From Schmidtea polychroa (taxonomy: Eukaryota): a stretch of DNA of 64,000 bases. Under the pieces are notes generated by a model. It was not told the DNA's origin. It did not search any database and saw nothing but the letters and a program-made list of their open reading frames with translations. The DNA lies in NCBI GenBank assembly GCA_044892525.1, contig CM097885.1:114576001-114640000 (forward strand), in the 5' to 3' direction. A program made the translations under genes and the position numbers. Shown here one piece after another: positions 5,439-47,125 of the stretch; the first letter of the stretch is position 1, and each line of letters begins with the position of its first letter.

Positions 5439-6266
5439 GTTTTTATCATTATTATTTTTGTATTATTTCTTCTACTAATAGTATTGTTATTATTATTATT
5501 TTTGTATTTCTTAATAATATATATTTTTATTATATATAAATTTGCATTTCGCAAAATAACATTATTAAAAATATCATTAGAAAGATTGTTTAAATGATTC
5601 CTTTTTTGCCTAAAACCTGCCATAATTTTGGACATAGTTATCCAAATCAGAACCGTAACGATCAATAAGTATGTAGCAAGATATATCCCCATTATATATT
5701 GTTTTGTAGAAACAATCAAACTGCAAATAACTAATATCATTACACTAAAGAAAAAGCTAGCTTTATCAACAGTATCTTTGACTCCAGCTTAAAATATCGT
5801 AAATTGAAATATGGTTGTTTGTTTCAGGCGTTTTTCTTGTAATAGTTTCTGGTATGTGTATGCACACAAATGCGGGAGGGGTTGTTTTGTCATTTTTATC
5901 GCGTCTGTGTGCGCGTTGTTATTAAAATAGTTATACACCAAACACCACTGAGATACATTTTCTATAGTGGTTGTTGGTGTGTAAATTATTAAATTGACTC
6001 ACTAATTTAATAAATTTCATTTCTTGAAACGATGAACCTTTTGACCATTACATTGATATGACGGAACAAGAAGATCAAAATCGACTGTACGAAATATTTA
6101 CTAACTTGTTTGATATTGTGATTTGATTTTAATGAAAATGATTTGTTTAATATACCGTGCGATTCATAATTCTGTCTCTAAAACTAAAATAAAACAACAG
6201 TAAGAACCAACCAAATGTTACTTTAATGCAGAACAAATAACGGTAAATAACAAGCAATTTCATAAC

Positions 6267-8034
6267 AGTAGGTATTTAGTGGACCACGATAACACGACCA
6301 TCCGGTGTACCAACCTCTAGAAAAAACAGTTGTTGCCATTGGCCATATTTAATTTTTCTGGGATTTTCAATACAAAATATGATCCTCGTTAAAAAGCATA
6401 GATTTTTCTGACTATATCGAGGGATCTCCATGGTCACCATGGATTTTCTTTACAAAACCCGACTGTCGCTTAAAAAGCATGGATTTTTCTGAATATAGTG
6501 AGGTGGTCTCGATGGGTTCTGTGATCCTCGCAAAAAAAGCCATGATATTTCTAACTATAATTAAGGTGGGTTTCCATGATCCTGGTAATTTCTATACAAA
6601 ATATGATCCTTGTCAAAAAAGCCATAGTAATTTAAGGTTCCAGGATATTTTCAATACAAAATCCAACTATCACTAAGAAAGTCATGAAGCCCAGGATATT
6701 TTGTTCATAGAATTAATGGTTAGATATTTGATTGATCAATGACCACGTGAAATTATTGGCTAAATAGGTAAATTAAATGCTAAATTATTTATGTTAATTA
6801 GGTAAATTAAGGGTTAAATTAAGTAAATTAATAAATGGTCTAGAATTTTAAATTAAGTAATAAATTTTGAAAGATGTTCAGAATTGGTAATAATAATTAA
6901 AATTAAAGTAAATTAAGTAAATTAAGAGTTTGCAGATATTTTGAATATTGATACGTTTCTTTTTATTTCTATTGCCTAATTCCACCAATAAGTTTTAAAA
7001 AGTCTATAACTTGATAAGGAAGTAAAGTTTTTTAAATTCTAAAATAATTTATAAAATAATTGTAAATGAGAAATTAATTTATTAACAGTTAGACTTTTTA
7101 AATTTATTAATGGAATTAGACAATAGAAATAAAAAGTAACGTATTAATATTCAAAATATCTGCAATTTAAAAATACAATTAAAATTAAATTATATACCTT
7201 ATACCAACTTTTTTAATATAAATTTGGTAAAATTAAGAAAAGTTTTTAAAAACCTCAAATAATTTATTAAATAATTGTACAATTATAGATTTTAAAATTT
7301 ATTTATACATCTTCCTACAAATAAAATTCTTTTAAAAATCAACAAATTTACTAAATATTTTTATTAAAGTGATAATTTTTAGTAAAATAATTTTAAATAA
7401 ATGTAATTAATACTTAATATCTCTACTCTTATTCGTTTTCTTCTCATCAAAAACATTTCAAACACACTTCTCACTGAGAAGTACCAATTCTCATCATCTT
7501 TTAAAATTTAACCCTTAATTTACTTAATTTAAAAATATAGTCCTTAATTTACCTAATTTACTCTAATTATTACTACCAATTCTCATCATCTTTCAAAATT
7601 TAACTCTTAATTTCACGTGGTCATTGATTAATCAAATATTTGACCATTGATTCTATGTAAAAAAATTATTGGGACCTCAAATAACTATGTCTTTTTAGCG
7701 AGGATCGGATTTGTATAGAAAGTCCCAGGACCAGGAGACACACCTAAATATACTTAGAAAAATCCATGCTTTTTAATGTTAACTGATATTAGTGTAACCC
7801 ATTTTTGTATTGAAAGTCCCAGATTCGATCAAGACCTCCTCACTATAATCAGAAAAATCATGGGTTTTTTAGACCCTTTTTTGTATTGAAAATTTCAGAA
7901 AAAATAAGCGAAGTCCTATGCAACAATTACATAACCAATAAACACAAAAATGGCTACTGCAGCACTTATTTTCTAGGTGGAAGTGGAGGAGTACACCGGA
8001 TGGTCGTGCTGCAGTGGATTACTAACTACCTACT
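6267..8034. mobile_element. About 1.8-kb imperfect palindrome (foldback) with internal ~110-bp repeats; probable non-autonomous Maverick TIR derivative
   Basis: Ends AGTAGGTA(T/G)TTAGT...CACGACCATCCGGTGTAC are inverted copies (6267-6320 vs 7990-8034); TCAATGACCACGTGAAATT at ~6737 vs its reverse complement at ~7610; GCAGATATTTTGAATATT at ~6932 vs its reverse complement at ~7148; arm repeats match 39285-39570. No TSD found. Confidence 0.75.
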
Positions 8035-8512
8035 GCTTATTAATAAAAAGTATTCGATCAAAAGGTTTCACAATGTTGTTTGAACAATTCCCAAATACAG
8101 ATGTTGGATAAATGTGTTTTTGTGTGATTGACTGTATGTGCTTGTTATGAAGTGTATAGCGTTAGTGTTGGTGTGCAATTATCTATATAGTGATTTACAC
8201 TGTCAATATGCAGAGCTTCATAAGCACTGTTGTGCGTTTGTGTGATTTTTTTTATGAAATTTAATTATATTACATTACCGAGCTAAATTTTTTGGCTTGC
8301 TTTGATTTTTTATACTTAAATATTAAAAATAGACGAATACAAGAAATTTTAGAAAAATTTAATAAATATCAATAATTTGAATTCAAATAGAGACTGACAG
8401 GCTCTGTTGTGCATTTTAGCGTTATTAACAAAAAGGTAATTAAATATTATGGGAAATATTCAAAATTTTTATTATTAAATTTACTTTAATTATTTTGAAT
8501 TTATTTATTTAG

Positions 8513-8774
8513 AAAGGAAAACTTATGTTTGCAGATTACATATTTAATGGATACGGTTCTACTAAAAGTGATTTATTCAAACAAATAAATTTGTGCAAAC
8601 AACTTTCTGAAGATGGATTTCATCTACCAAATGATTTTCAATTTAGGTATTTAAAAATATCCCTCATCTTAATAACCTATTTTTAGTTTTAGTAATGAAA
8701 GTAAACAATGGCTGGAAGAAGATGCTTATTCTAAAATACAAACTTTTAATGCTCCTCAAAACGTGACATCATAA
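8513..8774 (+). CDS. ERICH6: ERICH6/FAM194-family protein, terminal exons 8513-8646 and 8687-8774
   Basis: Joins in phase 0 after ...GMCLMFQ (4227) to give KGKLMFADYIFNGYGSTKSDLFKQI...DGFHLPNDFQF, the FAM194-like LMF.GGKL.F...NGYG...G..LP.DF.F motif; 40-nt intron 8647-8686; stop TAA 8772-8774. Confidence 0.65.
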
Positions 8775-8962
8775 CTACTTACTTAAAATCGAAATTTATA
8801 TAAAATGATATTTCATAAATTAAATATTTTTTTTACTTTTTAATTCTTATGTAAAATCTGTATTTGTTTGTAATTTTTTATAGAAATAAATTGAATTGAA
8901 TTTGATGTAACGTTTAATGAATATTAAAATCAACTAATTGAATAATTTTGGTTGTACTAAAG

Positions 8963-10040
8963 CAGTGGTCCGTGGTGCACTTATTGGGGGTATGTAGATC
9001 GTTGAGTAAAGAATGAATTGTTTTCCGAATTTTTATTTTAACAATTACGTGAAAAGGTTCAATATTATAAAATTAAACAGCAATTCTATATAAATATATT
9101 TTTAAAAAATAAACCCCATCCTAAGAAGTTTAGCTTTTCTAATTCATAGTATTTGGTATTTTAAATTTCCCATACGTCCATAAAAACGCCGTTTTTTAAA
9201 TATTTTGTTCATAAGCAGTCCATTAAATTTGGTTCATTATTTGGATTTCAAAAGATAAAAAACGGCATACAATCGCAAAGATTCTGATTGAGCTATTTGC
9301 AATGGAAATGGTTAAAATTAGGTGTGGTAAAGAAGCGAATCCCATTGTCCAATATTGCAATTCATGATTGAATTAAGGATATGTTTTAAAACAAATTGTG
9401 CAGCAAATAAAAAATTCTCAGCAAAAATTGGCTTGCAATTAGATAAATTCACAGATGTTTCTAATTGTGCTCAACTTCTTGTTTTTGTTAGATATGTGAA
9501 TGAAAATGATATCAAGGAAGAATTTTTATTTTGCGAACAACAACTACAAAAACTGTGGATATTGTGTCAATTATGAATAATTTCTTTGTCTTCAATGGGA
9601 TCTTGTGGCCGCTATTTGTACTCAGGGTTGGACTGGAAACACATTTAGGCTCAGGGAATATTGGTAATGTAGGCCCACAATATTAAATTTAAGAAACAAA
9701 AATTTCGAAAAAGTACATGACTAAGTCCTCGTTTATCAATTAATTTTATTGCTTCAATTATTCTTTCGAGTATTTGATTATTTAAATTCATTTCATTAAA
9801 AAAATAAAAAACTTGACTATATTTGTGGGCCAGTAGACCCACGGTGATATTGGACCGATGGGCCAGTTCAGCACTGTTTGTACTGCTGGTGATCCAGTCA
9901 TGCTCGGGTAAAATTTTGGATTTATTGCTCTTGTGAAACAGGAAAACCCAAATGTGTATCCTAGTTATTGCATTCTGCATTTTCATACTTTAGCATCAAA
10001 GACTTCCACCTTATTTCAAAGAAGTATTGGATATTGATGA
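8963..10040 (+). mobile_element. hAT transposon (SCAND3/ZBED8/Buster-type), decayed transposase
   Basis: Starts CAGTGG; translation IGLQLDKFTDVSNCAQLLVFVRYVNENDIKEEFLFCE (QLDESTD motif), then AVCTAGDPVMLG..GFIALVKQENP...CILHFHTLASKT after the MITE. Confidence 0.85.
9623..9876. mobile_element. hAT MITE nested in the hAT transposase
   Basis: TIRs CAGGGTTGGACTGG / CCAGTTCAGCACTG; exact 8-bp TSD TTTGTACT (9615-9622 and 9877-9884). Confidence 0.9.
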
Positions 10041-16140: not shown

Positions 16141-18254
16141 ATTTCGACATAGAAAAAAGAGGACCAATCGTATATAAATAATTGCATATATCGGTGTATA
16201 CACCCCAACCAAAATGATATATAATAAAAGTAGAGGACCGATCACCATAAACAAAGATAAAATAATGCGAAAAATCAAAAATATTAAAATCCACGCTTAT
16301 TTAAGAGTAAGGAAAATAAATCAGAGAAATGGACAATTGGCAAATATTGTAGAGAGGACACGAGAACAAAATACTGAGAACCGAGAGAACACATAATAAT
16401 AAATAAAATAATGAATGTCGGGGACGACATTTTGCGAAGACGCGGAGAAAAAATTAGATCAAACTAGGACAACAACAAACTAGGACAACAACAAACGGCA
16501 GATCAAGATGAAAGTCAAAATGGACATGAGGAGTAATAGGAACAATCAGGAAAAATTATACAAGAACATGATTGACGGAAAATGAAGAGCGCACATATAA
16601 CAAAATAAAATGTGAACAAATAAACACAATAAAAATGACAAGGAAACACAAAACGAAATGAACAAACAGGAAACAACAAGTAACAAATTCACAGAAGGAA
16701 GGCAAGGGCAAAGACATTTGAATGAAAAATCAAAACAGCGAGAAAACGACAAATATAAAATAAAACACGATACAATGAAATGGAACAATAAATTGAAAGC
16801 TTAACATCACGACACGGCCAATTAAAATAGCAATAGATGCTAACAAAAATGAGATCAATTAGAAACATTGGAACAAAAGTTTTAGTTATGGAAAACGAAC
16901 ATACTGCCTACTTTTACTATGGAACAAAAAGTTACAATAATGAAAAACGAACGAACTGTCTACTTTTATTACGAAACAAAAAGTTGTAATTGTGGGATTG
17001 AATAAATTCAGAAACGATAAATGCAATAATATCAACCACTCCAGGAACAGCTAGGAAGAAATGCGTATAGATGTAGGTATCCAGATATATGTAGATATGT
17101 GTATATGAATATAGGTGTATGAATAAGGGTATATGTATAAGTATATGCGTACATATGTATAAGTATATATAAACGAACAATAAAATGACGTAATGAACAA
17201 ATAAACAAATAAGCAAGGTTAAGAGCCAAAGTTAAGTAGTATACAGATACGGGAATATGTTAAAACAAAATATATAACGATTTGCACAATATAAAAAAAA
17301 TTAAAGGGAAACGTAAAGAATCAAATTTTGGGAAAACATACAAATATGGAAGCGTGATAAATTACAAAATTGAGCAGGGATGTTTAATAAATAAACCATT
17401 AACGAATAGAAAGGTAACGAATAAAATGGATGAACAAATATTAACGAGTAATGCGAGAGGGATCTGCCTGAGGAAATAGTGAGCATATTAACGAGAAACA
17501 AGTCAATCGAAGCGGTGAGAGTAAAAACGATAGCAATAAAACGTTAACCAGACAAGAGACGTGTATATATTTAGAATAATGAAGAAGGACCAAGAGTAAT
17601 CGAGAAAAGTAGATTAAGAACACGACGTAAAAATGAGAATAGTATTACGAAAATTGATAGCAAATGAATAAGAAAAATTTTTTTTGGGGTTTGAGAAATC
17701 CACAACCTATGAGCTACGCTCAGCGTAGTGCGGATAAGGCACAGGAAAGTACCAACTGTCCTGACGAAAGATGTGGAACAGGGCCCATCGCATATACTGG
17801 AACATCTCTGCGTGTGACTGATCACCACACGATCGGAGATCGACCAGTGCGAGTGTTTCGCATCCAGAGTCAGGAGAGTGGGGAAAACCCGGAAGAGTAG
17901 TAAAAAGAAGCATGCAGGAGAAATAAAAAGAGACCAAGTAAATGGGAAAAGACAGAGCGGAGTAAAGGGAAACAATTAGAGCTTAAAGACTCAATTCATA
18001 AGACAACCGGTAGGCAGAATAATAGAGGACAAAGAGAGTTAAAGGAAAACGAATAATAGATGCGAATAATAGATGCGAATCCGGAGTCAAGGGAATGGGG
18101 AAAACCCGTAAGAGCAGAAGGAAAAAATTTAAAAAAAAACAGGCATGCAGGGGGATAAACGATTAGAAAGTGCACAGTAACTAAAGTAAAGACAACAAAA
18201 ATAGTGAGCCTAGGACAAACAGAGAAATGGAGAATAAAACATGCATGTTAAGGA

Positions 18255-18528
18255 TTATTAAGGCCGAGCTGTTGAAGTGTCCAGCTGGTCAGGAAAATTA
18301 AGACTGCGCTGGGAAGAGTCCAGCCAGTCAGGATATTAAGGCCGAGTTGTGAGAAGTCCAGGTGGTCAGGATTATGAAGATTGAGCTGTTGAAAAGTGCC
18401 AGCCAGTCGTAAAGGCTAAAAATTAAAGTGAGATAGCCTAATAAAGCTAAAAATTAAAGTGAGATAGCCTAATAAAGCTAAAAATTAAAGTGAGATAGCC
18501 TAATAAAGCTAAAAATTAAAGTGATAGC
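18255..18528 (+). repeat. Two adjacent minisatellites: degenerate ~38-bp units (18255-18410) and a 31-bp unit x~3.7 (18412-18528)
   Basis: Units like TAAGGCCGAG(C/T)TGT..AAGTCCAG..GGTCAGGA; then AATTAAAGTGAGATAGCCTAATAAAGCTAAA repeated with period 31. Confidence 0.85.
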
Positions 18529-20089
18529 ATACTAAAACTATAAATCACAGTGAGGTAGAATATTAAAGCTAGCTAAGAGAGGAAATTGAGGAAGAATAAT
18601 TAAAAATTAGATGATAGAATTAGATTATAGAGAAGAATAAACGAGCTCGTGGTAGATGATAATAAAATTTTAGTGAGAAAGAGAAACAAGAAAGGAAAAT
18701 GAATCAAGAGATAGCGAAAATAAAGAATAAGTGAGAATAATTAACAAAAGGAAGAAAATAATTAAATAATTAAAAGGGATCCCAGTGAAGTAGAAAAGGC
18801 TCTACAGAATTTAATTTTTGTGGTTTAAATCGGGAAATGATTTTTTTTTATTGGTTCCAGAGTAGAACCAAGTGAGGGAAACAGATAAGAAAGGATAGGT
18901 AAAATAGCGACAATAGCGCAAGAGAATTAGGAAAAATGAGGAGGGGTAATTAGCAGCAACGGACAACGACCTATTGATATTATAATTGATAATTATAGAT
19001 AATTGATACGACCATATAGATAATTATTACTACCCCACATAGATAATTTAACATCGACGAAAGTTTGGGATTATGGTTCATTACAACCCACGATATAGGA
19101 ATTGTACATCATTTGAAAATGTCGAAGGTATAAACAGATTAGATAATAATTTTTAAGGCTTCGAAAGTAGAAACGGAGAAATTAGAATTTTTAATAAGTC
19201 TGGAAAGCGGAGACCAATGGGATAAGAATTTTGTTTCAGTTGATTGTTTTGAATGCAGAAACGAACGAGTTAGAAATTTGTAAGGTAAAGAGTGGCAGGT
19301 TAACGAATGATAAGATTGGTAAATGTTTGGGTAGATATATAACAGAAAATAAATGAAATCTCAGTAGAAATGACAAGAAATGAATTGATATTAGATAATC
19401 GGGTAAGAGAGAATGAATGAGAATATAAGAAGAATAATAGAAATTCTAGTTAAGAATGAGTTATAGAAATGACAAGGAATGAGTCAAGTGGAGATGAGAG
19501 GCAATACAAGTACAACTGTGAATATAGTTTCAAACTTAAGGAAAGAAACCGTTAAGTAGAACAATGAACTCAGTCAAGAAAAACAGCAACGATAATAATA
19601 GTTAATGAAAGGAGGAAATATAAAGGGTAACCGATATAGTAAACTCAAAGAAATGATTAAACTGGAAACAACCGAGAACAAAACAAGGACCATAGTAATG
19701 AAGAAAAACTAAGAGGTAATACAAGTTAATGGATAGAGATAACAGAGAGAGATAGTCATTCAAAGCCAAGAAAACCATAGAAACGAGGAAAAAGAACACG
19801 AATTAAAATAAATAAGGATCGAGAAAATTAAGTAGAACATGAGAATAAAGGCGAAAACTAAAGGAACGAGGAAACAAATATTAAGAGATGCCCCAGGAAA
19901 CCAAAACAAAAACATTGCAATTATGTTATATAATATATAAATTATAATTTATAAAGATAATAAACGGTAAGGAGGAGTGATATTTTTCTAGTAAGGTAAA
20001 TCAATCAAGCAAGCTAATAGCCAAGTATCAACAATCAACCGGAATTCATCACCAAATAATTAAGCCAATCGATAATAGAACCAAGTATG

Positions 20090-21754
20090 TCAAACGAAGA
20101 AGAAATGAAAGCTGCAAAGAAAGGAAAACGAACAATCAAATCCAAGCAAACGCAAGAGAGTAAAAAGGAGAAATCAAAGCGACATCTTAAAAACGGAAAG
20201 TCGACCCTCAAAATAGAGTGGTAAAAGGAATTTTAAAACAGTCAGTCGAAAAGTTTAAAACGCCAGTGGAACTTCATGAAAGAGAAAATAATATAAAAGC
20301 AGAAATATTGAAAGACCTTGAAACCTAACTAAAGAAAGAAATCAACGACGGAGAGATAATATGGATATATGAGCGAACAAGCTAGCTGAGATGCAAATCA
20401 GATAAGCATTCTTACAAAACTATGCAGTAACATAACCGAGTATCAATCCGAAATGAAAAGAAAGCAAGAATAAATGTACTACAATACGTTGGAAGCAGAT
20501 CACAAATTGAAAACAACCTAACTAAACAACCACAAGAATGGAACAGCTTACAGATCACAGAGGCCCGAGAAGCAGAAGAAAGATGGAGTAGACGAAAGAG
20601 AAGAAGAGAAGAAGAGTATTGGAGGAGGAGAAAGGAAGAACTGTCGAAAGTTGATATATTGAGACTAACTACCAATGACAGCCAGAGGGAAAAGATAGAA
20701 GAAATGTGTGAAAGACGACAAAGAAAAGTAATACAAATCAATATGATGAAAGTGATACCGAGCAACAAACTGGAATCACAAAGAACTCTGGACTCAAGAG
20801 TGGAAAGTGAAACAATCGAAAGAATAGAAAATGTAATATTGGACCATCAAAATATCAGAATCATTGGGAACAATCGGAGAAATTATAAAAATACGGAAAA
20901 TCAGGCTGATATTACAGCAATCCAAGAGAATCGCATGAGATCAGTCAACAGAAGAGATTGCAACAAATCGAAGACTAACGAAGACCACGAAATTCGAAAT
21001 GGTGAAAATAATGAAAACATCGAGACAGAAGAACGAAGAAAAAAAATGATGAAAGTGAGATTGAACCAAATATCAATAATAAAGTAAACCAGTATTGTAA
21101 CGAATGCCAGCAGCGAGGACACAATGAGCGTAATTGTTCTTTGAATATGATAGGTTGGAATTGTCAGAGAATGAGGCATTGCGAAAAGAAATGTCGTCGT
21201 ATAAAAAGGTGTTACGAATGTAAAAGAACAGGACACTTAATTAACACTGTCCGAATGTGGCAAATCCAGAGAAAAATCAATCACGGAGAAGTACCACTGA
21301 ACCGACCAAGCAATACGCACAGAGAAAAGAATTCAACAGTCAGATAGTAGAAATTGTCAACCTCCAATGTTAATAAAACAACAGTCGACAAACGTACGTC
21401 GAAGTGAAGAAACATGTAAAACTCAACGTATCCGAAGAATTGAGAAGACAATGTATAGAACAAGGTGACATAAATAAAGAATTTGTGATGAAAGAAAAGA
21501 GACGGGATGAATTGATAATGATATGGAGACAAGTTGACGAAAGCAAAACAAAAAAAAATGAAGTACTAAAAACAACGATACTCAGACTAAACGAAGAAGC
21601 AAGGTCAACAGAATTAAGAATCAATGAAATAATGAATAATCGAGAGAAATGCAAAGATATGGCAGCAGAGACACAAATGATGATGGCCAAGGAAAAGAAG
21701 AAGGGTAGTGCAAAGAATGAAGTGGAGAGAAGTGTAGATGAGAGTAATATATAA
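20090..21754 (+). pseudogene. Decayed gag/ORF1-like coiled-coil protein with three CCHC-type zinc knuckles (copy 1)
   Basis: CNECQQRGHNERNC, WNCQRMRHCEKKC, CYECKRTGHL at ~21090-21250; charged coiled-coil segments; multiple stops. Confidence 0.65.
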
Positions 21755-22769
21755 GAAGTGTACATATGTAAAAATTGATGTATAAATAGCAAACCAAATG
21801 TATTAGACGTATAGGTATAAATTGATGTATAATGTAGCAAAGGATCGATGTATAAATAATTAAAATAGAAATGGATCAAGTAATCAGTTGGGAAAAAATT
21901 TGAACCCTTACAATGATAAAGGAGAACAGAGGCTCAAATGAGAAGAAAGAATATAAATCCAAAAGAAAGATAAAAGTGCAGACCCGGAAAGAATGAGTTA
22001 AACGAATATCTAAAAGTAATATCTAATTTGGAACCCCTAAACAAAGAACGGTAAAAGACCCTGATAAATGAGACGAAAGTCACAGACCCAGTGACATTGG
22101 AAACTTAATCAAATCAAGCGAACTTGGACTAAAATCAAAAATAATTCGAGTTACCCGTTAAAGAAAGAAAATCCCTTAATAAGAGCAATACCGTAAACAA
22201 AACCACCAAGAAAAACCAAAAGAAAAATCAATGTGTCAAATCACCCAGTTAAACAAAAATTCCGAAGACCCTTGAGCAAGGTCTGTCATATATTATCAAA
22301 TGATCCAGAAAATCAGAATCCCAGCATAAAAATCCAAAGAGAATCCGGGAAAACAGTCAAACCCCGATAGAAAGAATCCTATGATCTTCAGTAAGTATTA
22401 CGAGCTAAATTATGAAAACCAACAACAGCAATCAAACATGCCTACAAAAACCAGCCTAAAGATTGAAAACCGAACCCAGAAACGAGAAGAAACAACCAAC
22501 TGAAGAATTGATCCAGAAATAAAACTGTTGTTTGTGACTTGACTTGAGTTTGGACACGGTATAAGTATGTGTGTGTATTATGACCAGTCACTGTATGTGG
22601 CAACTGCTTGAATTTTAGCTTAGACCCTTTTCTGATAATTCAATTTTAACATGTCTTAAACTGTTATAGTATGTTTATGGGTTAATGGAAATGTAATAGA
22701 CTATGATCTGGGAAATTCATATGTCTAACAGAATTGCGGGACGCAATTTTAACGGGTCCCGGAGTGATT

Positions 22770-24793
22770 TGTTGGGCTAGAACCGAGAATCGAGAGCATG
22801 TTTTAATGAATCAAAAATAAATAACATAAAAATCGCACCAAGTTATATAAAAACACCAAAAACTAAAGTACATAACACACGGATGATAAATAAGACCCGG
22901 TTAATAAAATAAAGGAACGCAAATAAAGGTCACAATCACTAACACCATTAGGAGAAATATCGCATTCGGAATATCTAACAACTAAAAATTAAAATAATAA
23001 TAAATAAAATAATGGGTAATAAATTAATTAATAATATGGAAAACTTTTAAATATATAAATATAAAATTTAAAATAAATTACCTAGTAAACTGGTAAAATA
23101 ATAAAAAGTAGAATAAAAGTAGTAGAATTAGATAAACCATAAAATTTATAAAACTAAATTGTTTAATGAAAACTAAAAATAAAACCAACAAAATTATTTA
23201 AATTAAAAATTTAAATTATAAAACTTATAAAACCAAATTGTTTAAATTAATGAAACTAAAGTAAAATTAACTGAACTTATTTAAATTATAAAACTTGTAA
23301 AACTAAATAAAAATTAGCAAAAACTATTTAAATTATAGAATTTATAAAAATAAATCTTAAAAATTAATAAAAATTAGAATTTTGATTAATTAAATTAATT
23401 AAATTAAAAAATAAATAATTGCACACATTCATGCATGCATGCAAAAATTAATCAGAATCGCCTCGTATTCTAATTGGATATAACAGCAGAGAATGCGTAG
23501 GCGTATAATTCAATCAGTATAAATACTGAGTGAAATTTCATTTAAAAAAAATGGAGAAGTCACGCTCAACTGGTTAACTGAAAATCGCTACAGTAGACAA
23601 TGCAAATCCCATGGCTCTCGATTGTCAGTTTTATGCATGCGTGGTGAGGTAAATTTGATTTTTGTTAATTTTATGTTAATGATTTATATGTTAATTTTAT
23701 GTTAAAATTTATATGAAATAATAGGTAATTTTTAGGATTTAGTAATTGAATTGGTTTGGCTAATTTTGCGTCTGTTCATTTTAATGTTAACTTGGAATAA
23801 TATTTTAATAGGAGTAAGATGAGTTTGATTTTATTAATGACAAATTTATATGATGTAAAATGTAATTTGTAGGATTGAATAAAATTTTTAATTGGATTTG
23901 TTTTTAATTGACTCCGGAGTCTTGTTTATGATACTTTTTGAATAATATTATAATTTAGGTTGGGTTTTTCTTGATATTTATGTGTCGATGGTCTGGGCTG
24001 GGGCAAGGTTTGTGGACGGGCGGCACTACGTGCTGTTGGTCGGCAGATATTTCGCCAGTTGAGTCCATCGGCGTAGGGAATATAGATAGGGATATGAACG
24101 GTTAGGGGGGAATCAATTTTCGATAGTTTAGGGCCCTATTTAGAGTTAGAAAGTATAGGACTTTTATTTTCATAGATATTTCTGAGTTAGGAGAAATATT
24201 AGAATAGTTATGAACTGTTGTCGGTAGAGGAAGTAGGTTTAGGCAATTTTATAGAAACCACGAATAGTTAAGATATTCGATCGTTCAGGATTAGGAATAC
24301 AGGCAGATCCCTGCTCAAATTTTCATGAGAAGTGTGGAAACATGTTTATTAACTTGTGAATAAGGGCCAATCCCTGCTCAAATTTTTCAAAGGATAATTT
24401 AGATATTGTAGGGGGTATATAACAATAATTATTAGATGGACAATAAGGGCGGATCCCTGCGCAAAAATTTTACAAGGGAACAGTTGGAAATACCCTTAAT
24501 TGAGGACCACAAATGATCTAAAACAGCATACATAGTGAATAATGACGTAAGACCTTCTATCGGCAGTCTAGAACCCGAAAAGAAAATACAATGGGGAGTA
24601 GTTTTAGTAATAGAGCTCACCTGCTCATTGTTTTTTCGCCTTTGTGTACAGTACAAACATGGTCGTCACCATGGGTACACAAATGGTTTAAATTGCAATA
24701 GTCATGGAGGTGCTTAGGAAAGAGTCGAGTGAATATCTAAATTACCCCTGACGTATTTAAAATATAAAATGGCACACCCCTAAGTAACCAACA
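22770..24793 (+). repeat. LTR (2024 bp), variant of the 1547-bp LTR
   Basis: TGTTGGGCT start and GTAACCAACA end; last ~500 bp nearly identical to 46610-47118; 5' part diverged and longer. Confidence 0.85.
23473..23529 (+). promoter_or_regulatory. LTR promoter: ATTGG (CCAAT) box and TATA box
   Basis: ATTGG about 40 nt upstream of TCAGTATAAATACTGA; the same spacing is kept in the otherwise diverged LTRs at 46114-46161 and 59455-59502. Confidence 0.6.
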
Positions 24794-26505: not shown

Positions 26506-27200
26506 ATGTTTCAGAAATTCGTAATTTATATTTATCTTTGTATATTATAAAATATTTGAACTTTTAGGTTAAATTGTGTTTCAGCAGTTCTTTTAGAACA
26601 ATGGTTAATTATTCATAATTTTTTAATAAAAATATTTTTAAGAGTTCTAAATCGTGGAAAGTAACTCGCTTAAACCATGTTGCAATTGCTGTTCCTGATT
26701 TAGAAAAGGCAACCAAGTTTTTCCGTGATACTTTTGGTGCCAAAGTCAGCAAACCAGAGGTTTTTTAGATTCTAGTTTTTTTTATTATTTTTCTAAATTA
26801 CAATATAAATTTACTTGTCTTCTATGATTTTAATTACAGATTCGCCTATGAAGTTTAAATTGTTAAATTATAATTATAATTAATTGAATATTGCATATCA
26901 ACTAGGAATTATGTAAAAACAATCTAAGTTTATTAATTATAAACATAATTTTCTTATTTTAAAGTTGTAGTTAATATAATTATAAATATTTTATGTTTTC
27001 TTGTAATTATGTATGAAGATGTTTTATAATTTTAACAGTTCTATCCCAAATTTAATATAGTTTATATTCGTTATTCTACTTTTCAATTTTATTGCTGATG
27101 GTCTTGTTTTTCCAGCTTTTTTTAATTTTTAGTATTTTAGCCACAGAAAGAACACGGAGTTTACACAGTCTTTGTTGAATTAGAAAATGCCAAAATTGAG
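26506..27200 (+). CDS. MCEE: Methylmalonyl-CoA epimerase, exons 1-4 (26506-26520, 26568-26603, 26643-26759, 27141-27200)
   Basis: All phase-0 GT-AG joins give MFQKFVKLCFSSSFRTMSSKSWKVTRLNHVAIAVPDLEKATKFFRDTFGAKVSKPEPQKEHGVYTVFVELENAKIE: a transit-peptide-like leader plus the LNHVAIAVPDL VOC-fold motif. Exons 1-2 are less certain than 3-4. Confidence 0.93.
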
Positions 27201-27480
27201 GTAATTTTTTATTGAATTATTACAAATCTTATTGAATCTGTGTTAGCTAATCCAGGGATTTTAAAATTGACTGTAGATATTAAACTTATTTATTACTTCT
27301 ACCAGAAGATTTCACTTAGAAATAATAGTTTATTTCAGGAACTACGTTGAATACTCATCCGTACTTTTTAGTGACAGTAAATAAATAGATTAAAATTAAA
27401 TAGATTAAAATATTTTTTACCGATGTCTAACAATAAAATAAGATAAACATTACAAGCTTTGTGATACCCAGTGCAAATCC

Positions 27481-27526
27481 CAATAGTAGACTAGTTTCGA
27501 GCTTTTGGCTCTCATCAGTATTATAC
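27481..27526 (-). ncRNA. Minimal type I hammerhead ribozyme
   Basis: Minus strand: ATAATA CTGATGA GAGC CAAAA GCTC GAAA CTAGTC TACTAT. Complete core, 4-bp stem II, palindromic ACUAGU stem III, GUC cleavage triplet (+27489-27491), stem I with 5 of 6 pairs. Confidence 0.85.
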
Positions 27527-28653
27527 AGGAGACGTGAAGATTTCTCTTCGCGCCAGGTAAGTATACAATATTGCTGATTCAACTCTATTGCATACTTTAC
27601 CTGCTACACTGGAAATCACATCACTTGCAAATTCGCTAAATCACAGAATAAAAATATCTGCAAACTTGTAAACATGGCGTATGAAAAATCATATTCGCCT
27701 CTGGAGACACCGTCATATACAGAAACTGTTTACAAGTGCATCCGTAAACCTTTAGCATTTTTAACGGTATTTAATGAAAATGGAAGGATGTTTTTACCTT
27801 TGGAATTGTATAAAATCTGTTTTCCCACTTAGTTGCACAAATATTGTTTAATGTGAAATATTTTTATGTTTGTTTAACTAAATAGATCTAAAACCAAAAT
27901 TTCTATCCAACTAGACAACTCAAAATAACAATAATCATTAACCCCATGCCATCGTGAGACCAGACATAAGATTATTTTGGTTAACCGTATTGAAATGTAT
28001 AATTTGGAGTCACAAATGGAATAAATCATCTAATGAGTACACTTTGACCCTAAACGGAAGTTTTCAATATATACAATTTTTGTGTAGTTCATCCTAAAAA
28101 TCATAACAAGGTGAAGAAAATTAAATGCATTCACAAAAAGTTGAAATGTAATTTGGGATTTTATTGAATTACCTACCAGTTAGAATTTCTGCCTTAAAAT
28201 TAATAGAAATTTGAAAAAAAGATTAAAATAAAAACTGAAAATTATTGTATAGTTATGTGTAATATCGATTCCATGATTCTGTCTTCCAATTGTAAATTAT
28301 GAATTTTGTCATTTTAAGATGTTAGAATATTTATTGTCAATGTTTTTCATTATATTTTATTATTATTTATCAAATGCAAAATAATTAATTATTTAAAATT
28401 TTTAAGAAAGCTCAAACTGTCGAAATATATCGTAAAACGAATGTTCAAGTGGCGCTTTCTTGTAATGAAATTGTTATCATGTCTGTTTAATTATTTATTT
28501 AAAAATCATATTTCATTCTTAATTTCATTTCGAAAAATTATATTTTTATAACACATAAACCTCCCTGAAATTAAAAATTCCGGGTCTTTGTGAAATTTTG
28601 GCATGGAAGAAATAGGACTCTGAAACAAATCGAAAAACGTAATAAAAATAACA

Positions 28654-28930
28654 ATGAATAATAAATTTTCAGATGTATTTCCTTGTGAAAACCTAGACAA
28701 GACAAAAAACAATTATGTAGTATTTGATGATTATGTAAATGATAAAAATCAACAAGTAATGAAATCATACTTAACAAGATCTCGACATACAAATTGTTGG
28801 TTGTTGTATTTATCTTTCACAAAAGTATTTTGATTTACCTAGAAGATCAATTCGTGGAAATTCTAATTTTTATATATTCTTTGAATTGAATAAACGTGAT
28901 CAGTTTATACTGATTTATTTTCTACCTTGA
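28654..28930 (+). pseudogene. Maverick/Polinton A: A32/FtsK-like packaging ATPase, C-terminal part
   Basis: YVVFDDYVNDKNQQVMKSYLTRSRHTNC..LYL(fs)SQKYFDLPRRSIRGNSNFYIFF (Walker B plus the RH / Q.YF..P..IR.N motifs). Confidence 0.8.
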
Positions 28931-29479
28931 TTGAAAAACAGGAATTTAATTAATTTAACAAGAACAACCAATAATTGATGATATATTGGCAACTCCAAAT
29001 ACAAGGACATTTAAATTGAATGTAAATTTAGATTCATTTTCTGCTCCAAAAAATTTACCAAAATTAATTGAAGCAACTTAAATAGGAGATAAAGAAGGAA
29101 TAACATTGTTGATGAATGATGATAAATATATAATTACTTTGGAACAAGATTCATTTTATATTTTCTATCCCCAAAAAGATGTGAAGTATTTCCTATCACC
29201 TGGTTTATTATTATGCATTGAAGGAAATGTATTTGATGTTGATGGAAGCTTACAAGTTTCAAAAAATGAAATTGGAATACATTTTAAATTGGTTAAAGAT
29301 TTAAAAAATTTTGTTAGAATTTACTTATTAAATAAAATTAAATGTTGCTTAAGAACGTTTGGAAAAATTAGAGCTAGAAAAAGAATTGGAATTCAAAGAT
29401 TCAGAAGGAGAACAAGAATCAGAACTACAACCAGAATTTGAAAAAAGTAAAAATATTAAAAAAATTAAAACTGAATAAA

Positions 29480-29650
29480 AGGGAAAAGGTTTGTCAAGTA
29501 TATTTTATTTTCCAGATAATCCAATTTCACTATTTGAAAATTTGATTAAATTATTAGCAGCAACATGATAATACTTATAATCAAGTTAATGCAATTTTAC
29601 AAAGACTTGGAACTTAAATTAATAACAAGTGACAAGTATAAAAAAGATTT
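29480..29650 (+). pseudogene. Maverick A small conserved ORF remnant upstream of the major capsid gene
   Basis: GKGLSSIFYFPDNPISLFENLIKLLAA...NQVNAILQRL, a pattern recalled from invertebrate Maverick small ORFs. Confidence 0.45.
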
Positions 29651-29699
29651 TAAAAAGATTCTTCAAAATAGATAATAAAACTAAAATTTAACAATAAAA

Positions 29700-30891
29700 A
29701 TGGCATCAAGTTTTGATTTTAACAAGACCTTTTTATTTTAATCATGATATCCGAAAACAAGATTACATGGAAATATTCCCATCAACAGCAAGTGCAAAAG
29801 CATTAAATAATGGAGGTAAAATATATTAAAACATTAATCAATCTTCAACCTCTCTAGATATTTCTAATTCACTTTAGTATTTCAAGGTTAAAATAACTGG
29901 AAATGAAGTAACTGATAAATTTACATTTTAACACAATTGGATACTAAATATTTTTACTATAAAATTAGGACCATCAGAATTAGAAAGAATAGATCGTCCT
30001 GGTCCAACTTCTTCAATTTTAAATTTTATCATGGCAGATTCAGATTTTTAAAAACAACATGGAGAATTTAGTGGATGGATGTTGGTGATGGAGTAGTAGA
30101 AAATAAAGGTTATAAAAAACGAGTTGAATTATACAAGCGGAATGTGTTTGAAGGAATGTTTCTATTAAAAACTCTATTTGGATTCTTTCAAAATTACAAT
30201 AGATTAATATATTTAATACCATTTGAACTTTCAATGACATTGAATAATGATTTCAAAAGTTGTTTATTCGAAACAGTTGTAAATGCAGCAACTAAAATAA
30301 AATTTGAAAGTTTAACACTTGGTTTCATCAATAACTTATAATTCAAAACTAGAAACTAGAATAATGGATAGAATTAATATTGAAAAACCTATAACAGTAA
30401 AATTTTTTCAAAGAACTAGGTATAGTTGGAAACCAACATTTTTAAATTCTAGACCTCGTTATATTTTTATTGGGTTTAAAGAAGAAACACCGGATTTTAC
30501 AAAGAATAATTCAAAATTCATTCAATCATTTGGAGGAGATAAAGAGATTCATTCTCTAAGGGTTCAATTAAATACAACTTGGTATCCTTTAGATCCCATG
30601 AATTTTAATAGTAAAAATAATTAACAAGCAAAACCATATCAGGCATATATAAATTCTTGTAAATCATGTGGAGTAGATCCACAAACAAATTTGATTAATT
30701 TTAAAAATTTATATTCTATATTTGGTTTTGATGTATCTGATTAAGATGAAAAATTATCTATTAATGGTGTTAATGTTAAGATTGATATTGAAAAGAATAC
30801 AGGTTTTACAGCAAAATGTTTTTGTGTAATTTTGACAGAGCGAGAAGTAGAAATTCAATTGAAAAATGGAAAAATAATTAATATTTTGTAG
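29700..30891 (+). pseudogene. Maverick A major capsid protein (hexon-like, double jelly-roll)
   Basis: LFGFFQNYNRLIY.IPFELSMT, SRPRYIFIGF, LRVQLNTTWYP, FKNLYSIFGFDVS; many in-frame stops. Confidence 0.8.
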
Positions 30892-30962
30892 ATAAAATGT
30901 ATGAAAAATTGGAAAAAATGGTTAATATATTGTCAACAAAATATTCAACGACTTTCTTTTAA

Positions 30963-32744: not shown

Positions 32745-33139
32745 TTATGTTCAACGCAGTTATTTGTTTCTGAATTTACAAATAAATTTCCTATTCCTTT
32801 ATGCTTGAATAGAAATTATAACTATAAAGTTGTATTGCAATGGTTTAAAGGTTTTAATAATGTTCGCAATGTTACAAGTGAAAATAATAAAATAATAATA
32901 GAATGGGTTTCAAAGAACGGAGTTACACAGTCAAGCTTGGCAAACTTAAAAGAATCAAAAGAAATAATTATACCCCCTGGAGCATATGAATTAAGTAATT
33001 TATTTTCAACAATTAAAATTCTAGTAAAAGATGTTTTGAATGTTAATAAAATGATTTTTCCAAAACAAATGCAAGAATATAAAACATGGTGTGAAAATCA
33101 TAGTGGTTTTGTTTTATAGTTGTAAAAATTATTGATCCA

Positions 33140-33970: not shown

Positions 33971-33974
33971 TTTA

Positions 33975-35125
33975 TCCAGGTACGACTGATGTTTTATGTC
34001 ACTATCTTTCAATGTTACACCTTTAGCCTTTTTTGTTTCCTCATCACCCAACAAACTATAACAATTAGGTCTAAGAAAAACTCATTCCTTATATTTAAGA
34101 CCTTTTTTCGCGTCTTTGAACTTTCCAATGACAGAATCAAGGTTCTTACTATATAAGGAATGACAACTATCGTAATTGAAAGTATCTAATAAATTATCTC
34201 GGATCATTGCAGGTAAAAGAACCTCAAGTTTACAGTTAATTACTTCCAGGAAAAAAGAGTCTGTATTAACGATATTAATTTTACAACTAAACTCATTGCG
34301 AAATGTTTCTAAAAAAATTTATATTGTAATTCATACATTCTAAGTTTAGATAGATCAAGTACAGACTGACCAATGTAACTTGGTCTATCTAAATATATAG
34401 AATCTGAATTTAATAAAGCGGCAATTAAATTATCTATTTTAATGGATTTTTTAAAAGTTGGGTTTGAAGAATATTTAACTAATTTACCGTCGGTAGTACA
34501 TAGGCGAAGATTCATTCTTCTCTTTAAATTTCCTACTGTTTTACCATATAAGCTATTATTTAACAATTTATAATAATTTTTGTCTAAATTATTTATGCTT
34601 TTTGCTCTTAATTCAGTATTGGTATCTATGTATTTTTTAAAAATTGGAGATTGCTTAAATCTTACACCCCTATTTACATGTGTTACTTTAACACCAAGTT
34701 CCAAATATAATTTTAATAATCTCCAATGAATCACATAATTAGATTTTGGAAGATGGGTTAATAATAATTTTTCAACCTTTGAACCAGCAGGTTTCATTTT
34801 TTTCAGCAGCTACAGGGAAATCGTCCAACTTATCATGAAGCTCGGAAGGAATTACAACATCAACTTCAAGACAAAGATTCAAGATTTAAATTCCTACATT
34901 CGTCCATTATTAAATCAAATCCGTCAAGAACCCAACTAAATTCACGACAAGGTAATTGTTGACTTAAAGCCCAACCTTAAAGATTATTAATATCTATATA
35001 AAGTAACTCGGTGTTTTCATCGGTTTTTACATAATGTTTATTTACAAAAGTAAGACCGCCTCTTATTCCACCCTCATAATAGCTAAACATTTCATTTTCA
35101 GTTATCAGTTCAATCGGTTCATCTA
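33975..35125 (-). pseudogene. Maverick B protein-primed family B DNA polymerase, catalytic part
   Basis: GGIRGG, LLYIDINNL*GWALSQQLP, YYKLLNNSLYGKT, IVNTDS, GKFKD, LRP..YS, KKAKGV. Confidence 0.92.
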
Positions 35126-35330
35126 ATAGAATCTCATTGGATCAAATGCATATATTTTGTTTGGTTTTACATATATTGCAAGCCAATGTTCACCATTCAG
35201 ATTAGCAGATTGAGTATTTACAATTATTGCTTTGTTGACATCTAAATAAGGTATTTTGTCTAATGGAAAAACACCTTGAAATTCTTTTCCTAGTAATTTT
35301 CTTCCAATAATTTGTATCTGAATAGAACTA
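35125..35330 (-). pseudogene. Maverick B adenain-like cysteine protease, N-terminal half
   Basis: FQGVFPLDKIP...AIIVNTQSANLNGEHWLAIYV...AFDP (catalytic His and Asp); truncated before the catalytic Cys. Confidence 0.85.
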
Positions 35331-35406
35331 AATTAATAAGAATTAAATTATTTAAATTATTTCTTACTTCATATTTGATTAATTGATTTTCTATATTTGG
35401 TTTATA

Positions 35407-36746
35407 TTATACCAAAACAGTACGAGTAGATGTAATTTGAATTTCTTTTTCAAAAACTCCATATACAATTACAGAAACAGCTTCAGTAAGTGAAGATGCA
35501 AATTTAATATCTAATCGTAAATTTCCACTTTGTGGTAACTGACTTTGATGAAGATCAAAATCGGGTGCCAATACAAATTTAAAGAATGGATACTTATTCT
35601 TAAAATCAGACACGGGGATACCACAATTCATATTTTTATTTAGATATCCCATATTTATAACTTGTACTATAGTCATCTTTCTCAAAATCTTGACTATATT
35701 TTTCACGATAATCACTTCCTTTACTTAAAATTATGGACTTGACATGAAAACGATCCACTAAATATTTTACTAGATTGAAATGCAACAAGAATAAATTTAG
35801 TTAATCGTCTATCTCCAAATACTTCTTTATAAAAAGAGGAAGAACCAATAGGTAATGAGAAATCAACAACTTCTTTGCTTCTTAACCACTTAATCTACAC
35901 ATTTATTTTGAATTTTGTCTCAAAAACTTGTTTCTATACGAATATTAGAACTCCTAAGTAAATATGTATAATGTTCGCCCGTCTACGGCACGAGCATGTA
36001 AAATATCATAAGTAACTATAATGTTCGCCCGTCTATGTCACGGGCACGTACATTAAGTGGTTAAAGGATAGATTGCATTTTTTGTAGACAGACCAATTTG
36101 ATATCCTGCCAAAACCGATGGTTCAACACGAACTCTTCTAACCATTAATTTTGCATCTAATAATACAATTTTCGGTTCAATTTTCGCACAAGTTAAACTA
36201 AGTGTTGGATTAAATCTTGTAAATTTAATTTGAACACTAACACCTGGTAGTAAAATATTTAGTTTGATCAAAGAAATCAAATTGAAGTGGGGAACATAAA
36301 GAAAAGGATTTTGATTTTTCAATCCATGTTTTTCTCGTAAGATCTTTGTTAGTATACACCATTCCACCTAAAGATGTTCGTTTAGTATCTCCGTCATAAT
36401 TTATAAGTGTGTCAATTAATGCTTTGTGGGCAAATCTATCATTTGATCCTTCAACTTTGATTGAATTAAAAATTAATTCAACATCTTTAAAAAGGGTTTG
36501 GAAGAAATTATTTGGAATTTCTTCTGAATCACCTAAATTATTAACAACTTTCAATTGAATATACAACAAAGTATCATTCAAAACTAAATATTCAGTTTGC
36601 GATCCATTTATGTAAAATTGAATCGAGGATGAACCAGCATCTGTAATTGAATTCCTTGGGTATATATCTTCAAATGCTCCATGTTCAATTACTGCTTGGG
36701 GAGAAGGTCTATCGAAAAGACATAATTCTGATTTAGCGCTAATCAT
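35407..36746 (-). pseudogene. Maverick B major capsid protein (hexon-like), interrupted by a MITE
   Basis: KSELCLFDRPSPQ, IQFYINGSQTEYL.LNDT.LY, NNFFQTLF, SPLQFDFF.Q.KY..PGV, AIYPL|RSKEV across the MITE, GNLRLDIKFA...VIVYG.FE. Confidence 0.88.
35886..36060. mobile_element. piggyBac-type MITE (175 bp)
   Basis: TIR CCACTTAAT / ATTAAGTGG; TTAA on both sides (35882-35885, 36061-36064); internal duplicated ATAATGTTCGCCCGTCTA. Confidence 0.88.
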
Positions 36747-37105
36747 TTTTCAAAGATGGTACCATATCCTTTCATTCTTTTGTTTATATGTTTCTTCATA
36801 ATTTTTCGTCGTGTTCCGCCTTTTTGTTCTTTATCATTTTTAAATACATCGTATATTTTATTAATTACTTCAGGTAAATGTTGCATCACAGCAGGTAATG
36901 AATCCTTATTTTCAGAAATTGCATTTGATTTTAAAGCCGGCAAGATACTAGAATTATTATTTATTACGTCATTAGCTGTTTTCATACCAAAATTTACAAT
37001 TCGTCTAAGAATTGGGAGTGCAAATCTACCTATTGTCTTCAACCAACCGGTTCCATATTGTTTACCAACAAAATATGGTAAATCACCACCCGATTGGTTA
37101 CTACT
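36743..37105 (-). CDS. Maverick B small basic/amphipathic virion protein
   Basis: Open frame NQSGGDLPYFVGKQYGTGWLKTIGRFALPILRRIV...EQKGGTRRK, lying between penton and hexon; resembles Maverick/adintovirus amphipathic core proteins. Confidence 0.65.
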   Translation of the reverse strand, partial: SSNQSGGDLPYFVGKQYGTGWLKTIGRFALPILRRIVNFGMKTANDVINNNSSILPALKSNAISENKDSLPAVMQHLPEVINKIYDVFKNDKEQKGGTRRKIMKKHINKRMKGYGTIFEK

Positions 37106-37134
37106 ATAAAATGTATTATGTCAGGATTACTCAT

Positions 37135-38119
37135 TGATTTTACGAAAATGTAATGTCAAGTATGTTTTATATTCTTTTCCAAATATGTATTTTCTACTAT
37201 AATCTCGTATATTGATTTCTATATTGTTTATATATGAAGACGATACCTGCAAGTACATTGGATTCTTTTCAATTATTTGTACTAAATCATCTTTTTTTAT
37301 GTTTTTCCACCCAAATACATTTCAATAGAGGAACCAATGTATCACCAACAATAATTGGTTCGATAATATTTGTATAGATCATCAATTGTTGATTGCGCTG
37401 TAATATTTCAGGTTCTTTGAAATCAATAATAAGTTTGTCAGTATATGCTTCTACTAATAATCCTAAACTATTAGCTAAAAACTTACTAAATTAAACTTTA
37501 CTGACATCATCATCCATTACAATTTTAACGATTTTTCCTTTTTGAATATCAACAGATTTAAATGTATTTCAGATAAAGTATTGATGTATAATTCATCTTC
37601 GAAATAATGTTCAAATTTTGTTTTTTCAACAACACTTATAATTATACCAAATTGATCAATTGTTTTATCTTCTGTAAATTTAGGTAATTTAATTCGAAAA
37701 TGATCAGTATCACTAATAACCGATACTGATTTTAATCCAGATTTAATAGCATGTTCAAAATCTGGAAACGTTATTTTAAATGGAACATGTGGACAAACAA
37801 CAACCAAATTCTCATATCTTTCAATGAACATGTCAACTTCAGAAGTATTTGTAGGAATTATTACTTCAAAGGTTCGATTTGAATTATTTATTCTAAAATA
37901 TTTAATTTCTTCATCCATCTTTACTTTTTCATATTGTATCAATGAATTACTGTAATAAGGAAAAGTGTTATACACAAAAGTAAAGTCCATGAGAGCTACT
38001 TCCCATTCACCATCCAAGTACATTAGATTTTGAAATTCGACATTAAATTTACTAGCTTCATTATCAGGGAAAATAAGAGGACAACTATTAGAAGGTAAAA
38101 TAATATAAAAATCTTTCAT
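37135..38119 (-). pseudogene. Maverick B minor capsid (penton-like)
   Basis: MKDFYIILPSNS..IFPDNEASKF.V......LDGEWEVAL; C-terminal YVGDTLVPL...IEINIRD in a shifted frame. Confidence 0.85.
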
Positions 38120-38124
38120 AATAT

Positions 38125-39203
38125 TTATTTAATCAATTGATTTTCGGATATCCAAGTTGGAGTTTCATATCCATGCCATTTAACATAGTATTGTTTATAT
38201 TTACCATCTTTTTTGGTTTTTAAAATCTTTTGAATTCTAAATATTGTAGGAGCAGAAATAACTTGGAGTTCTTGTTCATAGAATTTACCAGTGATTGGTT
38301 TGTTTTCATGATCAACTATCACATACATGACAGGATTCTGTTTTTTATCGATTTTCAAAATTTGATATACTTCATCACTCCAATTATTATCAAAGTTTTT
38401 GATGAATGGTGAAGAATTGATTTTACTAATTCTTACATGATCACCAACCTTGTATTTTGGTTTATTGATTTTTTCTATCTTTGTTTGATTTTTAGTAAAA
38501 TCAACAGGTGTTTGTCCTTTGCGGCGAATGATTGTAACTGAAAATAAATTTTGGCAAAACATTTATCCAAGTTTTATTACCTTGATATACAAAATATTTT
38601 TTCAATCGTTCTCTTAAAGTTCGATTAAATCATTCTACATGAGCAGCTTTGAACTGAGAAAATACCGAGTAGTTGTTTATTCCTTTGATAACCTCTTTAA
38701 CTTTGCTGTTATAAAATTCTTTACCTATATCAAATATTTAAAGATTACTTAATTAAATTTAATTACCTAAATCGGTTTGTAAATTAACAGGTTTACCATC
38801 TGCAAACATTTCTTTTATCGCATCAGCTATTTCATTCGCAGATTTAGTTTTTGTAGAACAGCACGAACATATCTATTAATAACATCAATACAAGTCAGAA
38901 TATATTTGTACCCCTTGTTAATTTTTAATAAGGTATCATTTCCATCTAATCCATTTGCCATACATCATTGTTTCCAATTGTTATGTATGGTCTTGTTGGA
39001 AATCGTTTCAACATTGGTTTATTTAAACTTAATGCTAATTGATTAGATAACCATTTCTGAGTTTCTTTCTTTGAATTATTCACTCGTTTTGTTAATTTTT
39101 CTACACCACCAATACCATCTGGATCTTTTGGGTTTGTCCATATTGTCTTGAACTTTTTCTCTTTTATTTTCTCGTTTGTTTTCACCCTTTTCACTTTTTT
39201 CAT
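38125..39203 (-). pseudogene. Maverick B retroviral-like (rve) integrase with chromodomain-like tail
   Basis: GGVEKL...WL...SLNKP..KRFP, WQMD, YILTCIDV, LQTDLG, KYKVGDHVRISK, WSDEVY, FYEQELQ, YYVKWHGY. Confidence 0.9.
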
Positions 39204-39284
39204 TTTTTGTTTTGTGATACTTTTCCTACATTATTACAATACTTTGTCAAAATATTAAAATCTACAATATTTTTATTTGGTAAT

Positions 39285-39681
39285 AAATTTTGTATTGAAA
39301 ATCCCTGGATCAATTGAGACCCCCTCACTATAGTCTGAATAATACTGGCCTTTTTCTATATGGCCTATCTAAATGTATTGAAAAAAAAAGTTTGTATTGA
39401 AAATCCCAGGACCATGGAGACCCCCTCATTATAGTCTGAATAATCCATGCTTTTTCAGTGAAGACTGCCTTTTTCTATTGAAAAAAAAATTTGTATTGAA
39501 AATCCTTGGATCAATTGAAACCCACTCACTACAGTTTGATAAAAAAGAATTTTGTACTAAAAATCCCTGAAAGCAAAGAAAGTGAGTTGGAACAATTGCG
39601 TAGTCAAAAGTTGGAATTATTTACCCCCCCTCCCCCCCCCCCCTCGGGGGTGGTAATTGTTCCAAGGCGCTCCTAACTACT
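39285..39681. repeat. Maverick B probable terminal repeat: ~110-bp subterminal repeats, hairpin and ACTACT end
   Basis: Three copies of TGTATTGAAAATCC(C/T)...GA(G/A)ACCC..TCA(C/T)TA(T/C)AGT; TTGGAACAATT/AATTGTTCCAA inverted pair; ACTACT at 39676-39681 (AGTAGT on the minus strand). Confidence 0.6.
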
Positions 39682-47118: not shown

Positions 47119-47125
47119 TGATTTT

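Follow-up and report, generated by a model that had tools for sequence, protein, structure and literature searches.

Maverick/Polinton elements reportedly obey a general end rule, 5'-AG...CT-3', formulated by Kapitonov and Jurka in 2006, and Repbase includes non-autonomous Polinton entries. Autonomous members measure 13-25 kb (PMC10748475) and are bounded by terminal inverted repeats (TIRs) of ~46-1500 bp; protein priming at the ends is their presumed mode of replication, and the footprints left when the integrase inserts them measure 5-8 bp, mostly 6 bp (PMC10748475, PMC8097293). In vertebrates, the outermost 6 bp of Mavericks read (AGT)2, (AG)3 or (AC)3A, and the integrase heads a module pointing towards the centre of the element (PMC8097293). 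Incomplete derivatives have been described as well: C. elegans harbours TIR-only remnants, catalogued as Polinton_CE_TIR (PMC11414722), and in butterflies polB-less polinton SVs remain mobile (10.1101/2025.02.07.637071); for the anole, PMC3014272 states that non-autonomous copies are absent. As far as the accessible text of the literature searched goes, no end-to-centre palindromic gene-less Polinton was found, and the available portions of PMC11662393, PMC2871265, PMC9341512, PMC10175614 and PMC6431247 hold nothing on non-autonomous palindromic Polintons; supplementary repeat libraries could hold such families.

Here, we analysed a window of 64,000 nt of Schmidtea polychroa DNA (AT-rich, ~30% GC), the whole of the stretch under study, which contains a gene-less palindromic element of 1768 nt at 6267-8034, reading AGTAGGTA...TACCTACT and lacking a target-site duplication (TSD). 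The parts of the element are listed in Table 1 together with those of a broken Maverick in the same window. Our analysis bears out the gene-less palindrome proposed in the preliminary description: the left arm aligns with the right at a score of 235.5, which none of 200 shuffles attains (maximum 54.5), and the longest stop-to-stop frame is 97 aa. No Maverick gene in the element is among the tblastn matches listed for the ORFs of L001, L010, L013 and L020, and Rfam returned 0 matches over 5500-9000, so that a 7SL head was not detected either. The symmetry is real but imperfect. The outer arms (6267-6912 against 7470-8034) differ by many indels and match in 407 of 505 aligned columns, the left outer segment pairing in 44 of 54 positions over 6267-6320, and the inner arms (6913-7047 against 7048-7182) match in 106 of 131 columns; from end to centre, 513 of 636 aligned pairs match and 72% of positions are covered. 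The arms, of ~780 and ~990 nt, are ~80% alike over aligned columns, ~290 nt (7183-~7470) have no partner, and the palindrome turns ~100 nt to the left of the element midpoint, at a central hairpin with a DNA fold of -63.5 kcal/mol (z -12.6).

Table 1. Parts of the palindromic element and of the neighbouring broken Maverick (positions in the window)
Feature	Position	Strand	Remarks
Left outer terminal segment	6267..6350	+	43% GC; shorter by ~45 nt than its right counterpart; other copies cover it poorly
Left subterminal block	6351..6700	-	4-5 worn copies of a ~65-nt unit, plus the head motif
Inner left arm	6701..6912	+	AT-rich (20% GC); pairs with ~7470-7670
Central hairpin	6913..7182	.	Stem 6913-7000 / 7095-7182, 73/87 pairs; turning point of the palindrome
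Unpaired AT-rich segment, right side	7183..7481	.	Repeats the hairpin loop (7020-7083) directly, at 80%, in 7235-7303
Inner right arm	7482..7670	-	AT-rich; 40-nt duplication 7482-7521 / 7574-7613, 95%
Right subterminal block	7671..7910	+	Units at 7711 and 7805, head motif at 7881
Right outer terminal segment	7911..8034	-	Family end at 8034
End block of the neighbouring broken Maverick	39270..39681	-	Terminus AGTAGTTAG at 39681; also a G-rich tract and a 100-nt repeat in 2.5 copies
Broken Maverick core	33980..39230	-	Integrase with chromodomain, core genes, major capsid, cut protease, polB piece

The element sits among older repeats: its flanks (5810-6240 and 8170-8490) are themselves repeated DNA, mostly at ~12-50x depth of near-exact pieces. 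An inverted duplication of the whole locus was considered and rejected, because the likeness between the two flanks is unconvincing against shuffles, 7 of 200 of which reach it in direct and 13 of 200 in inverted orientation. Close by, at 5934-5985, lies the end of another very abundant repeat family, with 64-92 contigs per run carrying unrelated flanks before 5933/5934 and contigs that stop matching at 5966 or 5983.

Both termini of the element read AGTAGGTA inward, from 6267 on the forward and from 8034 on the reverse strand, and these are the only two exact sites in the 64 kb. The ends are thus of the Polinton type, 5'-AG...CT-3', and AGTAGG on either side agrees with (AGT)2 in five of six positions, so that the exact 6-bp motif of vertebrate Mavericks is not present. 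The end word CTAACTAC, previously said to lie beyond the repeats, is intact at the right terminus but not in the shorter left segment. No TSD of 4-10 bp was found at offsets of up to 4 nt either way (4-5 bp had to match exactly, while longer ones could contain one mismatch); the flanking 6-mers, CATAAC and GCTTAT, match at 2 of 6 positions, a result with P ~0.02 for a 6-bp duplication decayed to the same degree as the arms. An empty-site joint from 6266 to 8035 is not among the joints listed (15 of 194), which is uninformative either way.

The connection to Mavericks comes from the repeated ~65-nt unit of the subterminal blocks. Its 15-mer head motif, TTGTATTGAAAATCC, occurs ten times in the window at up to 2 mismatches, six times in the element and four times in 39290-39566, where 0.91 occurrences per window are expected and 0 of 100 shuffles reach 10. 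The reported match between the arm repeats and those beside the Maverick integrase was reproduced: the right arm (7710-7944) is colinear with 39391-39605 over 154 of 211 aligned columns, at a score of 123 against a shuffle maximum of 40.5 (0 of 200), and the left arm scores 107 with the 39270-39681 block against 38 for shuffles, while none of 338 other window tiles exceeds 49.5 with that block. Coordinates and quoted motifs of the preliminary description also proved right, save for the motif quoted at 39290, which is off by one base. Aligning both arms to this block, as had been proposed, shows the subterminal unit to be common to all, with identities of 0.50-0.82 between element and block (82% in the best pair), but leaves the outer ~125 nt unmatched: the alignment of right arm and block ends 90 and 76 nt before the respective termini, and beyond it only AGTAG is common, the scores being reached by 23 of 200 and 90 of 200 shuffles. 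The arms thus have their unit in common with a probable Maverick end, but the neighbouring Maverick is not the parent. With the outer 125 nt unrelated and the units 50-82% alike, direct descent was rejected, and the neighbour is better seen as a related family, a cousin. As to the inner arms, matches in 27-41 kb are no better than those in other AT-rich parts of the window, and none were found in 28 related metagenome loci. Neither the element nor the 39230-39700 block has a match in any of these 28 Maverick loci, and scans with patterns of the ends and unit gave 0 matches in metagenome contigs, viral contigs and prokaryote genomes.

The sequence and position of the block at 39270-39681 argue that it probably is a true Maverick end. 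It starts 40-55 nt from the start of the integrase alignment (39215-39225), its terminus points outward and, unlike that of the element, is exactly AGTAGT and thus agrees with (AGT)2; beyond it, the next ~885 nt are host intron, up to a host exon. All of the Maverick debris is enclosed by a single 13.4-kb intron (27202-40566) of a host gene with a glyoxalase fold (26650-40860), presumably that for methylmalonyl-CoA epimerase, whose exons read on across the intron. Besides two Maverick relics, this intron contains Gypsy pieces and a piggyBac frame. The relic beside the block is rearranged: its polB piece (33980-35332) is inverted relative to L010 and adjoins a cut adenovirus-type protease at ~35125. 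A Maverick ATPase was found neither anywhere in the 64-kb window nor resuming beyond the relic, and 27150-40600 contains neither a second end of this Maverick nor a second copy of its flanking 6-mer. Adjacency of TIR and integrase is not the layout of the relatives, since in all nine related loci with ORFs that were examined (of 28) genes rather than an end lie directly upstream of the integrase, with an ATPase motif in 7 of 9 and Pox_A32 in 3 of 3 tested. However, these metagenome loci are only ~65% alike in DNA, and the integrase of vertebrate Mavericks heads an inward-pointing module, so that an integrase beside the end could be native or could result from one deletion. Searching viral contigs for the integrase yielded 0 confirmed loci.

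Several further observations concern these Mavericks. Between capsid-like pieces of the second relic, at 31545-32528, lies an open 310-aa piggyBac-type transposase frame (DDE_Tnp_1_7, E 2e-63). Among the relatives, L010 carries a TBP-family gene upstream of the ATPase (2393-2866; Pfam TBP, E 1.7e-18), and frames like it, judged by eye, occur in L006 and L009. L020 has three 88-nt repeats (7135-7436) at the contig end, beyond its core genes, which are perhaps subterminal units of its own; their sequence is unrelated to the ~65-nt unit.

Evidence that the element belongs to a family comes from contigs of four public runs (X1-X4, of 7) of the same organism, from two studies; of the remaining three, X7 contained 0.04 of the words. 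The left junction is bridged by a contig of X3 without differences (record 19, 6178-6378) and the right one by near-exact contigs of X1 and X2 (7801-8123; 1 difference in X1 record 8), and the hairpin is covered by another X3 contig, again with 0 differences (record 22, 6888-7167). In X3, 56 contigs leave the element exactly behind 8034 into unrelated flanks (loose ends of median 250 nt, mutual agreement 0.41), which identifies 8034 as the end of a multi-copy transposon; among the loose-end entries listed (24 of 2797), this break is seen for X3 and not for X1, X2 or X4. These 56 loose ends may belong to full-length Mavericks rather than to small elements. The commonest class of matching X3 records is 90-95% alike (2446 of 5598), so the copy in the window is not young. 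Joints from 6377 to 6533 and from 6377 to 6615, among those listed (15 of 194), skip 155-238 nt in the left block, which suggests that other copies carry fewer subterminal units.

Coverage differs strongly between the two sides. Summed contig depth, which is not copy number, amounts against near-exact pieces to ~70x at the right and ~5x at the left terminus, and is ~800-5200x on the left inner block and 19-26x on its right partner. The far deeper coverage of the ~65-nt unit than of the terminus points to a unit common to many end families. A family with fixed, different arms would cover both sides, whereas a symmetric family mapped onto a patchily decayed copy, or onto a chimera, would give the depth pattern seen. 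Variant sites hint at a family with greater symmetry than the copy in the window: of the 40 sites listed (from 204), 23 fall in the element, 19 of them with a partner and 4 without, and for those with a partner the letter of the other copies restores arm pairing in 12, breaks it in 5 and does neither in 2, a count that cross-mapping between the arms inflates, as it blurs both the variant and the depth tests.

Taken together, we propose, with a probability of roughly 0.6, that the element is an old and now decayed member of a palindromic, gene-less family with Polinton-type ends, which was moved in trans. Like autonomous Mavericks (PMC8097293, PMC10748475), it has AG...CT ends starting AGTAG, inverted arms on the scale of TIRs and a subterminal unit in common with the probable Maverick end in the window; unlike them, it is gene-less, 1.8 kb rather than 13-25 kb long and palindromic to its centre, and, unlike in vertebrate Mavericks, its sixth base is G rather than T and this copy has no TSD. 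Departing from the autonomous members in genes, size, exact end motif and TSD, it is not one of them but most likely acts as a non-autonomous Polinton derivative. Likeness extends to the TIR-only and polB-less Polintons, whose ends persist without the full gene set and which, in butterflies, also move (PMC11414722, 10.1101/2025.02.07.637071); as described in the accessible text, however, the C. elegans and butterfly cases are remnants or carry genes and do not form one inverted repeat from end to centre. Against a mobile family speak the missing TSD and an end reading AGTAGG instead of (AGT)2.

In line with what is established for Polintons, the cis signals would be the AG-type terminus, serving as the site of priming and integration, and the repeated ~65-nt unit, a candidate protein-binding site. 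A helper Maverick, of a family not found in the window, would have supplied the terminal protein and pPolB for replication from both ends, and its integrase would have inserted the element, which could in this way have spread in trans, much like a MITE or a defective-interfering genome. Following insertion, the arms presumably mutated independently and the footprint was lost. No matching helper was identified, because the outer 125 nt are unlike the one Maverick end at hand. More speculatively, the mirror shape may have arisen by fold-back of a displaced or nascent strand during strand-displacement synthesis and not by simple loss of the interior. Protein-primed replicons yield palindromic or hairpin derivatives, as with phi29 in vitro, yeast pGKL1 plasmids and Neurospora kalilo. 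The element resembles such derivatives as a gene-less, end-to-end inverted duplication with a putative origin at both ends; these are free DNAs, whereas the element is integrated, and for it a fold-back origin would be speculative.

The stronger proposition, of a wholly palindromic mini-Polinton family of ~1.8 kb, made by fold-back replication and multiplied in trans at a tenth of the size of its helper, we advance only tentatively. If it were true, the polymerase and integrase of a Polinton would work in trans on a pair of copies of a single end and would not require genome-length packaging; the AGTAG terminus and the ~65-nt unit would form the minimal cis signal common to Maverick families of one host; and an animal DNA virus-transposon would have genuine satellites of a MITE-like or defective-interfering kind. 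A gene-less family of small size, if still moving, would delimit the cis signals and demonstrate action in trans. The copy in the window is a weak witness to this, being decayed and devoid of both a footprint and a known helper. A unit kept in two families with differing outer ends offers a ready candidate binding site.

Alternatively, the element may be a collapsed larger palindrome, a pair of bare TIRs or a chimera of two copies. Such an in-place dead remnant, in which a full-length Maverick or a larger palindrome lost its interior, or two copies were combined, and two facing TIRs were left, seems to us rather unlikely. Arms of 780-990 nt fall within the 46-1447-bp range of vertebrate Maverick TIRs (PMC8097293), so that two bare TIRs would look like a snap-back product; divergent arms with non-matching flanks are the signature of chimeric Galileo copies (PMC3573991), and TIR-only Polinton insertions have been scored in C. 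elegans (PMC11414722). The lopsided centre is consistent with such an origin, as is the coverage, in that no contig in X1-X4 spans the whole element and some interior bins reach only ~13x. However, pairing extends to the central hairpin, so that a deletion would have to leave almost no unique interior, and the AT-rich interior is covered by many contigs (for example, 36-44 at 7404), although AT-rich DNA can match by chance at 84%.

Still less probable is an origin outside the Polintons, in a foldback or MITE family (Galileo/P, hAT or Mutator superfamily) of which one truncated arm would lie beside the Maverick integrase by chance. P-type elements start with CA, and MITEs of the hAT type have an 8-bp TSD and start with (C/T)AG. 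The palindrome at hand gains one C/G pair at 6266/8035, which would give a CAG start, and with these ends the flanking 8-mers match at 5 of 8 positions (P 0.058 by chance; had a duplication decayed, a match at no more than 5 of 8 would have P 0.225), the sole argument for a hAT-like reading. Galileo/Foldback elements have as their hallmark long TIRs with internal repeats, which the element also shows, and are further likened to it by varying tandem units, TIR extension, two-TIR copies and chimeras with divergent arms and no TSD (PMC3573991); the relatives of the neighbouring Maverick, moreover, have no end beside the integrase. Yet Galileo is a cut-and-paste transposon of the P superfamily with 7-bp TSDs (PMC3573991), whereas the ends and the unit of the element point to Mavericks; at the element, there is no 7-bp duplication within 1 mismatch, and the family end listed gives an AG start, the loose ends lying at 8034 and not at 8035 among the entries listed (24 of 2797). 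In addition, the end at 39681 is exactly AGTAGT, and an insertion at 39270-39681 would have to have lost its inner part along with all Maverick genes beyond it, two events against one. Finally, an assembly artefact or chance inverted similarity is scarcely credible: palindromes are prone to mis-assembly and the interior is ~80% AT, but the arms are only ~80% alike, the shuffle controls stand at 0 of 200, and the two junctions and the hairpin are each crossed by near-exact contigs, which come from runs of two studies, one of the runs possibly being the source of the window itself.

The remainder of the window contains other features. A ~15-kb element at 45572-60459 is bounded by direct repeats of 1547 nt that are 99.9% identical (LTR-like, young); it shows strong strand skew and no long frame, and much of it recurs, 88-92% alike, at 16154-24793. 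A 348-nt direct repeat, 99.4% identical, occurs at 47839-48186 and 62915-63260, with the word AGTAGT near its start (47863 and 62939). At 1805-2362 there is a 185-aa frame with no Pfam match, and at 61714-62940 a CEP164-like host frame with a WW domain runs unbroken for 408 codons.
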